Assembly (NCBI GenBank): GCA_036785375.1
Contig: JAWMAR010000462.1
Span: forward strand, 1,488,001 to 1,552,000
DNA: 64,000 bases
Source: Leucoraja ocellata
Lineage: Eukaryota
Direction of reading: 5' to 3'
Each line of letters begins with the position of its first letter. Position 1 is the first letter of the stretch. Position numbers and translations under genes: made by a program. Below, piece by piece: positions 57,396 through 63,490 of this stretch. The notes beneath the pieces are model-generated. The model was not told the origin of the DNA and did no database searches. It saw only the letters and a list, made by a program, of their open reading frames with translations.

Positions 57396-57792
57396 CAGTA
57401 ACCTTGTTCATGTGACCATTTTTTTTCGTTAAAGATATTTCCCAGCAACCATCATGCTCTTGAACACTAGTCAGCATTAGCGTCAACAGCTATGATTTTC
57501 TTTGAGCTGTGTTTCTGGTTGCACTATAAAATTTGGGTTTTGCATTTTTGTGGTGACCCCATATTAGTTATTTATTATATTATCGATGATCACATATTAT
57601 TATGGACCTGTTAAACTGCAGCAAGTAAGAATTTAATTGTTCCGATTTTGATACACCTGGCAATTAAACGCTCTTGACTCTTGTCGCCTTTGGTGGCTGG
57701 GCGAATGATCTGAGTCAAGTGTGTGCAGAGCCTTACGTTTGCAAAGGATTAACGTGAATATAGATGCAAGTCATTGTTGTTTTTTAACTGAC

Positions 57793-58002
57793 CTTGATCT
57801 TTTAAAGGAGAAGTTGGTTTTCCTCTTGCTAGCTTTGACTTTTCCACGATTCCTGACGCCTTCCTGCTGGTCCATGAGCAGCAGCAGAGCGGCCTGGTTT
57901 CCCCTGTTCAGGGGCATGATGGAGATGTCACGGACTGCGCGGAAGTGGCCACAGTTGTTCAGATGTTCGTTCTCCAACCGGAAGAAATTCCAGACAAATC
58001 GT
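57793..58002 (-). CDS. XPR1-like exon (EXS signature [14 protein letters not shown] and C-tail)
   Basis: [54 protein letters not shown]...; acceptor ttttctctgcag|; probable donor AG|gtcagt at 57792. Unspliced read-through stops at 57771. Confidence 0.9.
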
Positions 58003-58069
58003 CTGCAGAGAAAAATGTGCAAAGTTTAAATACAGCAGAACACTATTTACAAATGAGCCGCAAGTGAGC

Positions 58070-58480
58070 GAGGTGGAAAATAAAATAGTACAGCACAGGA
58101 ACAAGCCCCGTGGCCCACAATGTCTACGATTCAATGTCAATGAATATGATTCTAATTTAAAATTTCCTCTGCTTGCTTGTGACCCATTTCCGTCAATTCC
58201 CTGCGTATCCATTTGCCTATCCAAAAGCCTCTTACACACCACTCTTGTATTTGTCTCCACCACCGCCTCAAGGATGCATTCCAGGCTCCCGCTACCCTCT
58301 GCGTTTATGTATTAAAAAATCTGCCCCACATGTCTCCTCTAAACTTTTCCCCTCTCACCTTAAAATTAGCATTTGACATTTCCAGCCTGCGGAAAAAAAG
58401 TTCTGGCACTCAACTCTATCTATGCCTCTCAAAACTTTATATGATAGTTTCCGGTCTCCCCTAAACCTCTGTTGTTCTGG
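58070..58480 (-). mobile_element. CR1 3' fragment
   Basis: aaacttttcccctctcaccttaaa and actctatctatgcctctca motifs shared with other CR1 ends in the window. Confidence 0.7.
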
Positions 58481-59169
58481 AATAAATGTTTGCACTGTAT
58501 GTTTTATCATCTCATTTCACATCATTCCACGTCAACCCAAGTATATGGATAGCAAGGGTTTAGAGATTTAAGGGCCAAATGTAGTCGAATGAAACAAGCC
58601 CAGTATGCTAACTTGGGTGACATGGACAAGGTGGGCCTGAGGGCGAGTTTGCATGCTGTACAGCTGTTTCTAACCCCTCTGATTATTATCATTAACTCTC
58701 GATAAAAGCATTATTAGTCAAAATGGTGGTGATTGGGGAATTCCTCACTGCTGGAGAACATATTGCTATAAATTATTGCACCAGGTTTGTACTAAGTACA
58801 CTATTATCCCCTTGTTGTGATTCTTTTGGGAGCTATTAAGGTCAGCATGGTGGCACAGCGATAGAGTTACTGCCTTACAGTGCCAGAGACCTGGGTTCAA
58901 TTCAGTGTACATATATATGAGTAAAGGAATAACATGAATAACATTTAGTGCAAGATAAAACAAGTAAAGTTCAATTAAAGATAGTCTGAGGGTCTCCCGC
59001 AAGGTAGATAGTAGTTCAGAACTGCACTCTAGTTGTAGTAGGATGTCAGTGAATATTTCCTTAACTCACCTACAGATGAAAGGGATGTCTTTGATACAGC
59101 TTTAGGATATGGTTATGTAATGTACTAATATCAGAACATTGACTCCCACAGTTGTCCAATTTGGGGTCA

Positions 59170-59470
59170 GAATGTGGAGAGGATGTTTCTACTCGTGGTA
59201 GAATGTAGGACCAGAGGCCATAGCCTCAGAATAAAAGGATGTACCTTTTATAAAGGAGATGAGAGGAATTTTTTTGGTCAGAGGGTGGTGAATTAGTGGA
59301 ATTCATTGCCGCAGATGGCTGGGGAGGCCGTCAATGGATATTTTTAAGGTGGAGATTGACAGATTCTTGATTAACAAGGGTGTCGGGGGTTATGCGATGA
59401 AGGCAGGAGAATGGGGTTGAAGATGGAAAGATAGATTAGCCTTGGCCTAATTCTGCTCTTAGAATTTATG
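59170..59470 (+). mobile_element. CR1 3' fragment
   Basis: Homologous to about 35235-35540 (ggaccagaggccatagcctcagaataaaagga...). Confidence 0.8.
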
Positions 59471-59597
59471 AGAACTAATGAGAATAGGACATTGATCTTA
59501 AACGTATATGAATGTGATACAGCATTTCCTGCAGCAGTCACAATCATCGTTCCTGAACTTAACTTCCTATGCCTGTGGGAATGACATTGCCTCTTAC

Positions 59598-59734
59598 CTG
59601 AAGACCTCCAGTGGAGCCAGGGTAGTGGAGATGATTTCCGCCACCTCCGATTGCTTTGTGTTAGTGAACAAGATGTTAAGTGCCCAAGCAACACGAAGTA
59701 TCACATCCTGAATCATGGCAGCATAGTAGTAGAC
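59598..59734 (-). CDS. XPR1-like exon (EXS domain)
   Basis: Manual translation [45 protein letters not shown](R); acceptor caactag|, donor AG|gtaaga; phases 0/2 fit neighbouring exons. Confidence 0.93.
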
Positions 59735-60564: not shown

Positions 60565-60888
60565 CATTGGCACAGCCAGTCAAGTCACTACCTCGCCGTG
60601 CCACGGACATGGTTCAATCCTGACCTCAAGTGTTGGCTAAGTGGAGTTTGCATGCTCTCCCTGTGACTGTGCAGGTTTCATCCTACATCCTAGGCCAACG
60701 CACATCCCAGGTACGTGTTGGCCCCTGTAAACTGTGCAAAGGTAAATGCTATAATCTGGGAGAGTCGATGAGAATGTAGGAGGAATAAAACATGAATAAC
60801 ATACGATTAGTGTAAATGGATACCTGATGGTCAAGCATGGGCTTTGTGGGCCGAAGGGCCTGTTTCAGTGCTCATCTTTCTGAGACTC
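60565..60888 (+). mobile_element. HE1-like SINE
   Basis: ggttcaatcctgacct...gtggagtttgcatgctctccctgtgac...gggccgaagggcctgtttc; SINE heads alone also at about 54944-54993 and 58840-58902. Confidence 0.75.
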
Positions 60889-61833
60889 AAGGTATAGCAC
60901 GTGCCGATCCACTAATCCACACCTATCTTGCCAATCGTTCAATGGAGTTGGCAGTTTAATGTAGTGTCAAATCCTATGCTGTATAGGCACCAGAACACCA
61001 AAGACCACGTGACCAGTGGTATGTGCTATTCATATAGTTCTCCATTTCACAGGTGGCCAACATAGAGTCAGCCGTACAGCATGAAAACAGGCCCTTCACC
61101 TAACTCACCCATGCTGACCAAAATGCCCCATCTATGCTAACCCCACCTGCTTATGTTTGGGCCATATCCTTCTATATCTTTCCTATCCACGTATCCAAAT
61201 ATCTGTTAAATGCTATTATAGTACAAGTACTGCCACAACTACCTCCTCTGCCCGCTCGTTCCATATGTCCTCCACACTCCCCTCATATTTTAAACCTGTG
61301 TCCCCTGGTTCTTCCTAAAATAACGTCCTTTAATTCTGAGGCTATGACCTCTAGTCCTAGACTCCCCCACTGGTGGAAACATCCTCTCCACATCGACTTT
61401 ATCCAAACCTTTCAAAAGTTACTCCAGTAATTGTCAACGGGTCGGTCGGAAGATTTGAACTCAGTGGTCTGAGGAGATTACAATGGGAACATTGACACAG
61501 TGTGACAGAATTATGGGCAGTAGAAAATTTCATAGACAAAATGTACACTGATGTGGGAATTTCACTATTTCATCTAAATTTGGATGACACCTTCACAAGA
61601 AAGCAAGAACTTGGAAGAGAAATATTCTGCTTACTTGGTATTTAACCAACTTGGGCAAGTTAGTTAGACATGCAGGCTTCATAGACTAATTAACCACTGT
61701 AAATCACTCCTATTGTGCAGGGAGTGGATACAAAAGTGGAAAAACATAGAATTAGTGCCAACAAGTGATCGATGGTCGGCATGGATTGCAGGGCCTGATC
61801 CCGTGCTGTATCTATCAATCACCGTGCACTTAC

Positions 61834-62006
61834 TTTGTAATAGTATACTGTCTCTTCTCTCAGAAACTTGTTCTCCTTGGACTTCCTGTCCAACAGACCC
61901 CAGTCCATCTTCAGGTCCCAGCCAATGGTGAAAATGGTGCTGACACAGGTTGTCACGGCCCACAGGTAAAAGTAAACCTTTACACCGACCGTCAACTGAG
62001 AACGTT
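61834..62006 (-). CDS. XPR1-like exon (EXS domain)
   Basis: (E)[66 protein letters not shown] and FLREE motifs; acceptor ctctcccatag|, donor |gtaagt. Confidence 0.93.
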
Positions 62007-62269
62007 CTATGGGAGAGCAGGAAGGTGCACATGAGAATTCACTCGGCTCCACAAGCGACAGATTACTGAGCAGCACCCAGAGGGAGCGATTGTTGGTGAT
62101 CTTTTTTTAATATCCAGAAGTATGCCACAGCACGGCATGTAACCATGGCAACGGGCGGGGGGGGGGGGGGGGGGGGACCACAACTCTTTTTCTCATTGAT
62201 AAAGTAACCTGCTACAGCCAACAAATCTCCAGGCCTGCACTGCCAAAGACCAAAAATGTTTGCCCTAAT

Positions 62270-62720
62270 TATTTAGATATTTAGACAGGTGCATGGATAG
62301 GACAGGTTTGGAGGGATATGGACCAAATGCTGGCAGGTGGGACTAGTGTAGCCGCGACATGATGGCCAGTGTGGGCAAGTTGGGCTGAACAGCCTGTTTC
62401 CACACTGAATCACTCTGTGACTCTAGGTACATGGGTAGGGAAGGCTGAACGCAGATAAATGTGACTCAACTAGATGGGCCGTCTTGGTCAGCCTGGACGA
62501 GTTGGGCTGAAGGCCTGTTTCCCTGCTGCCTGACTCTACAGCCCTATTTCACAATCCATGCAGCACTTTGCCAAGAAAATATCCTTAGGGCCAACTTCAG
62601 CTCGTGGATATGAAAAGTTTTGAAGTGATTTTGAATGGGACCCAGCTTAGATGGAACATTTTAATCAGCATGGACAAGTTGGGCTGAAAGGCCTGTTTCT
62701 GTAATATATGATTCTTAGTG
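62270..62720 (+). repeat. Three successive CR1/HE1 3'-tail copies
   Basis: agttgggctgaa(n)gcctgtttc recurs near 62378, 62500 and 62677. Confidence 0.7.
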
Positions 62721-63295
62721 CTGAGAGATGCATTGGGCGAGAAGTGGGCAATATATGTTGAAGGCATCAGGCACACCAGTGCTTATGGTGACCAGCAGGT
62801 CTGAGCCATGCCCAGTGCTGTGATACCAGCCACTCTCAACCTGGCACTGAGTAACAGGTATCTGCAGTTTTTACATTGATCCAAAATGGAGTGAAGACCC
62901 AGAGATAGTAAAACCTTGATAACCCCACACCCCTGGGACTGCTCTGATGTAGATTTGCCCATTTTACAGACCATTAGGCATTGCTCTCATTATTATCTAA
63001 GCATGGTCCTGTTGCATGTTACACAGAAGAACTATACATTTTCCAGTGAACCCAGTGAGATTAAACAGCAGGAAATGTACAAACTCTCGGGACTTTGGCT
63101 TGGGTTGCAAACCCACACCAATGTTCCTGAACCCTGGTGATCTGGATCCCAACCACTGCTAGGTGGCATTCCAGACCCAGGGCACCCTACCCGCACTCTG
63201 GACCCCTGGCTCACATCCCCGATCCGGATGATGAATTATTAAAGTTTTACTGCAACTAGATCTCACCAGGATGGCAGCAGACTGATTTCACTTGC

Positions 63296-63490
63296 CTTTC
63301 TCCGTTGAGTACAGAGCTGCAAAGGTTACCATAATGAAAACCGTGGAGTATTTTCCAGCATTTGCTAAGTGCGGGAATGCATCCCGGCTGTCCCTGTATC
63401 TCCGGAGACACTGAGTGAATCTGATCCAGGGTGGAATACATTGGATAAAGCAGGTCATTCCATAGGAGTTACCACTGGTTATGTATTTAT
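63296..63490 (-). CDS. XPR1-like phosphate exporter exon (EXS domain)
   Basis: Encodes ..[64 protein letters not shown], homologous to XPR1 [18 protein letters not shown]...NAGKYST; acceptor ttttctggaacag|; GC donor G|gcaagt. Confidence 0.92.

Follow-up and report, generated by a model that had tools for sequence, protein, structure and literature searches.

A second, intact XPR1-family gene in the skate Leucoraja ocellata, probably a jawed-vertebrate ohnolog, combines a conserved pore with an altered plug salt bridge

Mammals have a single XPR1 gene. In the published work on its product, XPR1 (SLC53A1) is described as the sole phosphate exporter known to date, and engineered mutants are being used to learn how the inositol pyrophosphate InsP8, the C-terminal plug (C-plug) and KIDINS220 control the gate. 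The phosphate sites of the human protein were defined in PMC11926068, and the replacement R448W was tolerated according to the same source. The plug residue E622 pairs with R472, and the double exchange E622A/F623A raises efflux (PMC11933459), as does E622A alone (10.1101/2025.01.17.633679). KIDINS220 is required for surface delivery and binds residues 637-653 of human XPR1 (10.1101/2025.01.17.633679). Here, we describe a gene of the skate Leucoraja ocellata that lies partly within a 64,000-nucleotide stretch of contig JAWMAR010000462.1 (C462:1,488,001-1,552,000; hereafter the window, to which positions refer unless a contig is named) and that encodes a second member of this family, XPR2. Residue numbers given as human are those of mammalian XPR1 with 696 amino acids. 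We consider XPR2 an intact, spliced SLC53 member that likely originated in the first vertebrate whole-genome duplication (WGD), and predict that it is an inositol-pyrophosphate-sensing channel for phosphate efflux whose inner gate is held less tightly than that of XPR1, a reading to which we assign a probability of about 0.6.

Two XPR1-family genes and the structure of skate XPR2

A search of the skate genome for the EXS domain resulted in 23 matches on four contigs (C462, C243, C479 and C414). DNA identity amounted to 96.8-97.4% between C462 and C243 (four of four locus pairs) and to 96.5-98.5% between C479 and C414 (three of three), and no DNA match between the XPR2 and canonical XPR1 genes was found in the one cross pair tested. 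Because of the high identity within each pair and the missing match across pairs, we conclude that the genome contains two genes of the XPR1 family and that both are represented by a pair of haplotype copies, as the initial annotation had proposed in postulating a separate XPR1. The exon hits of the gene on C479 were 78-97% identical to shark canonical XPR1, while those of XPR2 mostly reached 49-69%, with 91% for exon 1. On the protein level, shark/skate-type XPR2 is about 61-62% identical to mammalian XPR1 as compared to about 83% for canonical shark XPR1, so that the divergence noted earlier is real. XPR2 also evolves faster, with 87-90% identity in three shark pairs versus 97% for XPR1. Four weak matches were obtained in a genome search with the SPX Pfam model, none of them at either XPR gene; this search is uninformative since the exons are too short.

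Skate XPR2 comprises 15 exons on the minus strand and runs from C462:1,587,901 down to positions 53824-53779 of the window; exons 1-10 are located past the end of the window (up to C462:1,587,901). The exon model was built from splice borders and upstream stretches with the closest database protein as a guide. The joined exons encode 683 amino acids with SPX and EXS architecture and without internal stops, and do not differ at a single position from the little-skate RefSeq protein P0001. As had been suspected, the latter already carries an automatic annotation, namely 'XPR1 homolog'. Pfam matches on P0001 were far above chance (EXS, E 2.8e-111; SPX, E 2.5e-30). All 14 acceptors are AG, and 13 of the donors are GT. 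The remaining donor, GC, belongs to the intron after 63296 (63295-63294, minus strand) and is present in both haplotypes, whereas canonical XPR1 has GT there; the exon borders of skate XPR1 and XPR2 are equivalent. Comparison of the two haplotypes over XPR2 exons 7-13 revealed seven differing positions, all seven of which are synonymous.

The four in-frame EXS exons from which the gene had first been recognized correspond to exons 11-14. Their acceptors and phases match, and the motifs named for them were found on the minus strand in their places. Exon 11 (63296..63490, minus strand) covers TM6-TM7 with the equivalents of R459, R466, K482 and Y483 and is followed by the GC-AG intron. It contains the codon for D467 (63381..63383, minus strand), the equivalent of human R472 and thus of the salt-bridge partner of the C-plug glutamate. 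Exon 12 (61834..62006, minus strand) encodes the equivalents of W528, D529 and D533, and exon 13 (59598..59734, minus strand) those of R570, W573 and E600. Exon 14 (57793..58002, minus strand) provides R603, R604, W607 and R611, the C-plug loop and the helix equivalent to the KIDINS220-binding helix of human XPR1; the codon for H618 (57945..57947, minus strand) corresponds to human E622 of the auto-inhibitory C-plug. Exon 15, whose coding part with the stop codon occupies 53779..53824 (minus strand), had been missed. Reading of exon 14 through to a stop at 57771 was rejected, as the exon is spliced at 57793 to exon 15 (53824-53779), in agreement with contig ends from run X24. The first AATAAA-type signal past the stop codon (53672..53677, minus strand) is a candidate polyadenylation signal; the 3' untranslated region may extend further, and an X24 contig also covers 53500-53558, beyond this signal.

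In run X24, the RNA status of which is the tool's guess, contigs started or ended on the exon borders 57793, 58002 and 53824. The pieces comprised 53630-53824 with the end of the gene, 57793-58002, which is the exact extent of exon 14, with a GT-AG joint from 58002 to 59598, and 59663-59732 joined to 61832-61975, which connects exons 12 and 13 (depths 3.7-5.8). This confirms splicing of exons 12-15; the GC-AG intron lies outside the X24 contigs. Five raw RNA runs (X6, X8, X12, X13 and X15) and two contig runs (X21 and X22) yielded no exon pieces and about zero exon-bin depth, which, in runs of unspecified tissues and without a control gene, is not evidence of silence. The region upstream of XPR2 is not a CpG island (observed/expected ≤0.59 in 20 windows). 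Such CpG poverty agrees with restricted expression and does not prove it. Expression of XPR2 may be low or restricted to certain tissues, and it is an even bet that it would serve a specialized export that amniotes and teleosts can dispense with. Interspersed repeats in the XPR2 introns (54581-54670, 55460-55560, 59240-59460, 61230-61400 and 62281-62410) showed very deep RNA coverage stemming from elsewhere in the genome. An Rfam search of the window gave no match.

Pore, plug and InsP-binding residues of XPR2

Sites of functional relevance were taken from PMC11933459, PMC11926068, 10.1101/2025.01.17.633679 and PMC11736019 and scored in 35 XPR2 proteins. Each species contributed a single protein, with redundant isoforms and fragments set aside; the species are 22 chondrichthyans, coelacanth, bichir, bowfin and 10 amphibians. 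XPR2 proteins outside the trees described below were assigned by membership in 90% clusters, and 108 canonical proteins were defined by exclusion. The alignment of XPR2 to human XPR1 extends over residues 1-681 (E 1e-280). Each of the 21 residues checked in the pore and plug is conserved in 35/35 XPR2 proteins, and the same holds for the residues of sites 1 and 2 (R459, R466, R611; R570, R603, R604) and for the W573 gate. Judged from these residues, phosphate would very probably pass sites 1 and 2 of XPR2 as it does in XPR1.

The plug latch presents a different picture. R472 and E622 occur together in none of the 35 XPR2 proteins as opposed to 108/108 canonical proteins and 3/3 cyclostome proteins. 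Ten combinations replace the pair at positions 472/622 in XPR2: N/Q (7), D/Q (7), S/Q (6), D/E (5), D/H (4) and others (6). The skate protein, with D467/H618, belongs to the D/H group; a fixed charge swap of the pair in XPR2 was considered and rejected as D/H is found in 4/35 proteins only. The five D/E proteins, with two acidic residues, are from carpet sharks, while most other XPR2 proteins carry a neutral Q. Further exchanges accompany the loss of the latch. E411 is replaced by W and R157 is lost in 35/35 proteins, and R448 of outer site 3 is lost in 31/35 (T in skate). The loop cysteine of the C415-C440 disulfide is absent in 22/22 chondrichthyan XPR2 proteins, and in 21 of these a cysteine has instead appeared at position 449. 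A structure model of XPR2 (predicted local distance difference test score, pLDDT, 53.6) was too poor for conclusions on plug geometry or cysteine pairing. Its best Foldseek matches were XPR1 entries, which, with regard to the ten-helix fold of XPR1, largely reflects sequence likeness and supports no more than membership in the family.

[quoted passage not shown] Changes concern R157 (to T) and K129, and five of the six lysines/arginines of site 1a are kept. We consider it quite likely that InsP8 would still bind to the SPX lysines of the skate protein. In six frog XPR2 proteins (P0026, P0029, P0146 and P0174-P0176) the pore is intact, K161E is present in all six and K165E in three; these proteins are candidates for InsP-insensitive exporters.

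We read XPR2 as a conducting channel with a looser gate because the pore is kept, the R472-E622 pair is lost, and the human protein shows higher efflux with E622A and tolerates R448W. A C-plug that lacks the bridge and retains the F623 anchor would perhaps leave the pore more readily, resulting in higher basal efflux and a weaker dependence on InsP8 and KIDINS220, a step for which we see about equal chances either way. More tentatively, and at odds clearly below even, non-amniote jawed vertebrates might carry a hitherto unrecognized, naturally unlatched exporter with little need for InsP8 and KIDINS220, a naturally occurring gain-of-function counterpart to XPR1 that was lost in amniotes and teleosts, and the Asp-His pair of skate could render the plug pH-sensitive.

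A number of observations speak against a looser gate. The plug anchors F391, F394, R466, G621 and F623 are kept in 35/35 XPR2 proteins. The variety at positions 472/622 fits relaxed constraint equally well as a new function, and XPR2 is the faster-evolving of the two genes. Invertebrate homologs likewise do not have the R472-E622 pair; in 7/7 rows, position 472 is acidic and position 622 is K or Q. In the Drosophila protein, the cover loop nevertheless limits efflux, which rises upon the exchange G604A (10.1101/2025.01.17.633679), so a plug can work without this pair. Finally, one study calls export by XPR1 into question as a whole, having detected none in oocytes (PMC11033234). As a separate observation, the plug pair of invertebrates is reversed in polarity (P0030-P0037 and P0041, mostly with lysine at 622), and therefore the vertebrate R472-E622 pair would itself be a swap.

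These findings lead to the possibility that XPR2 is an ohnolog which exports phosphate with XPR1-like gating, the latch changes being neutral or compensated (for example by D467-H618 in skate, resembling the acidic/basic pair of invertebrates), and which differs from XPR1 solely in its site of expression. The anchoring aromatics and arginines of the plug, the site-1a residues kept in skate, the functional cover loop of invertebrates with a reversed or absent pair and the ten combinations themselves are all compatible with such a protein. Set against this are the invariance of R472 and E622 in the canonical proteins, the effect of E622A alone, the carpet-shark proteins with two acidic residues next to the many with neutral Q, and the simultaneous changes at R157, R448, E411 and the loop cysteine. 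We regard unchanged gating as a serious but rather improbable alternative.

A second alternative arises from the region matching the KIDINS220-binding residues 637-653 of human XPR1, in which identity to the mammalian sequence is 54% for XPR2 and 97% for canonical proteins. As KIDINS220 is needed for surface delivery, XPR2 might conduct weakly or serve in regulation, influencing phosphate uptake or XPR1 itself, for instance as one half of a heterodimer or as a sensor inside the cell, and not as an exporter in the plasma membrane; PMC11033234 makes the case for regulation by XPR1, too. However, the invertebrate homologs are equally divergent in this hook (50%), and the complete conservation of the pore and plug residues is what would be expected of a conducting channel. 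A regulatory or weakly conducting XPR2 thus appears unlikely.

Origin, distribution and chromosomal neighbourhood

A quick tree was calculated from 53 chosen proteins and a careful tree from 24 rows. The quick tree contained an XPR2 clade of 17 rows with a support of 100 in the Shimodaira-Hasegawa-like approximate likelihood ratio test (SH-aLRT). Besides the skate gene and 10 further chondrichthyans, this clade comprised coelacanth, bichir, bowfin, a caecilian and two frogs; ten teleost rows and every amniote row were placed inside the canonical clade. In the careful tree, supports were 100/100 for XPR2, 68/94 for the canonical clade and 96/93 for cyclostomes together with XPR2. The inner order of the XPR2 clade is near the species tree. 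Both clades contain sharks, coelacanth, bichir and amphibians. A duplication confined to chondrichthyans was rejected by the approximately unbiased (AU) test (p=2e-8). XPR2 as a recent duplicate or as the ortholog of XPR1 was also rejected, given its own 100/100 clade and the identification of the other skate gene as the ortholog. As judged by tree topology, the duplication is older than the split between cartilaginous and bony fish, and XPR2 is probably a jawed-vertebrate ohnolog from the first genome doubling. This supports the WGD origin claimed initially. Less favourable to an origin at the first doubling are the AU tests of a duplication that followed the cyclostome split (p=0.054) and of a grouping of cyclostomes with canonical XPR1 (p=0.058), neither of which was rejected, and the restriction of the outgroup to three arthropods.

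A profile built from 15 members of the XPR2 clade added members from a tailed frog and a salamander, such that all three amphibian orders are covered. As coelacanth, bichir, bowfin and amphibians also keep XPR2, its retention over more than 400 million years is not special to cartilaginous fish, contrary to what had been assumed, and no link was found to the role in mineralization that had been considered for a gene which is in fact also kept in bony vertebrates. None of the amniote or teleost proteins ranked with XPR2 among the best 120 of 1494 profile hits, although more diverged copies may rank lower. Instead of the loss in mammals put forward earlier, loss throughout amniotes and throughout teleosts therefore appears likely from this ranking, which is weak evidence.

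The phylogeny also bears on whether XPR2 could be a decaying duplicate, or a recent, lineage-specific or mis-assembled copy of XPR1. Three of the 35 database records are flagged as low quality, the frogs have lost InsP-site lysines, and the five raw RNA runs, which were uncontrolled, had no exon coverage. Yet the skate frame is intact with only synonymous differences between haplotypes, full-length frames of XPR2 orthologs are present in 22 cartilaginous fish species, the chondrichthyan-only duplication is rejected, and the tested gene pair did not match on the DNA level. Decay or recent copying is largely refuted for skate and highly improbable.

The flanking genes on C462/C243 are arranged in the order QSOX - LHX3 - NACC - XPR2 - UBAC1 - CAMSAP, in line with the predicted location in an LHX3/QSOX/UBAC1 block. 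QSOX is situated at C462:1.265 Mb and the LIM gene at 1.316-1.339 Mb, both on the contig of XPR2 and no more than 0.3 Mb away. The best structural-database match of this LIM gene was Lhx3 by a narrow margin (144 vs 141 bits), and the copy on C236 prefers Lhx4 (155 vs 146 bits). The NACC-family gene (18386..36951, plus strand) is convergent with XPR2, extends from start to stop codon and encodes a BTB domain; a NACC-named Atlas cluster ranked first at 0.95. UBAC1 was found by a motif and a PDB match about 8 kb past the XPR2 start codon. The UBAC1 Pfam model matched nowhere in the genome, and 0/12 matches of a UBA search were on C462/C243. The start codons of XPR2 and UBAC1 point apart over this distance (C462:1587901-1596075), and the vicinity of the XPR2 start lacks a CpG island. 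CAMSAP is located at C243:0.464 Mb; as a side observation, the small contig C3958 carries a cluster of several diverged copies of the CAMSAP CKK domain. We take QSOX-LHX3-NACC2-UBAC1-CAMSAP to be the order at human 9q34.3, with the XPR gene in the gap between NACC2 and UBAC1; the names QSOX2, NACC2 and CAMSAP1 for the skate genes are our assumption from position and general knowledge.

Canonical XPR1 on C479 is accompanied by STX6 and an IER gene, which we take to be the neighbours of XPR1 at human 1q25.3, where the order is presumably STX6/IER5/LHX4/QSOX1. The neighbourhood of XPR2 is a different one, with LHX3, NACC, UBAC1 and CAMSAP. Canonical XPR1 was not seen beside LHX4 and ACBD6 as had been predicted: LHX4 was located on C236 and the other QSOX on C122, and 0/5 matches of an ACBP search were on C479. 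Canonical XPR1, LHX4 and the second QSOX are thus found on three contigs, and STX6 precedes XPR1 upstream in the same orientation, which departs from the human order. The separate contigs and the orientation of STX6 would point to local rearrangement in skate. A second syntaxin-6/10-type gene beside an IER-family gene was noticed at C160:157829-163647, representing a further paralogous block; the EXS search revealed no XPR gene there.

We take the LHX3/NACC2 block to correspond to GGA17. If so, both genes would have originated in the first round because of the copy assignment of LER10 and LER31. In Supplementary table 3 of PMC10115646, copy 1alpha of linkage group M is LER10 (=GGA8) and copy 2alpha is LER31 (=GGA17), and Supplementary table 10 of the same source places 'Xpr1-2.1' on Leri_10C, skate chromosome 10 (=GGA8).

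Significance and comparison with known systems

No paper describing the XPR2 paralog was found in the full-text literature, a search whose coverage excludes most subscription journals. XPR2 is apparently a database-annotated yet undescribed member of a known family. Lost ohnologs are common as such, which limits the surprise. The new and testable contribution is that, across the whole clade, the plug latch is gone and the pore fully kept. With its intact pore and its changes in plug latch, outer site and disulfide, XPR2 offers a ready-made comparative test of gating models. In addition, orthology is corrected: databases name the two skate and shark genes nearly identically, and work on expression or physiology in sharks, bichir, coelacanth and amphibians can confuse XPR1 with XPR2.

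Compared with human XPR1/SLC53A1 (PDB 8X5F, 9DVJ and 9ITG), skate XPR2 shares the SPX and EXS domains, sites 1 and 2, the W573 gate, the C620-G621-F623 loop and most InsP lysines. It differs by R472->D, E622->H, R448->T, E411->W and R157->T, by the missing loop cysteine of the C415-C440 disulfide and the new cysteine at 449, by a divergent KIDINS220 helix and by its location in another chromosome block. Canonical skate XPR1 on C479/C414 resembles XPR2 in family and exon layout, but only the canonical protein keeps R472 and E622. Teleost xpr1a and xpr1b also represent a retained XPR1 duplicate; the ten rows tested, however, lie inside the canonical clade, and the split leading to XPR2 is much older. 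Drosophila PXo and other invertebrate homologs resemble XPR2 in lacking R472-E622 (acidic 472, K/Q 622). Unlike XPR2, they are products of a single pre-duplication gene and have kept R448 and the loop cysteine.

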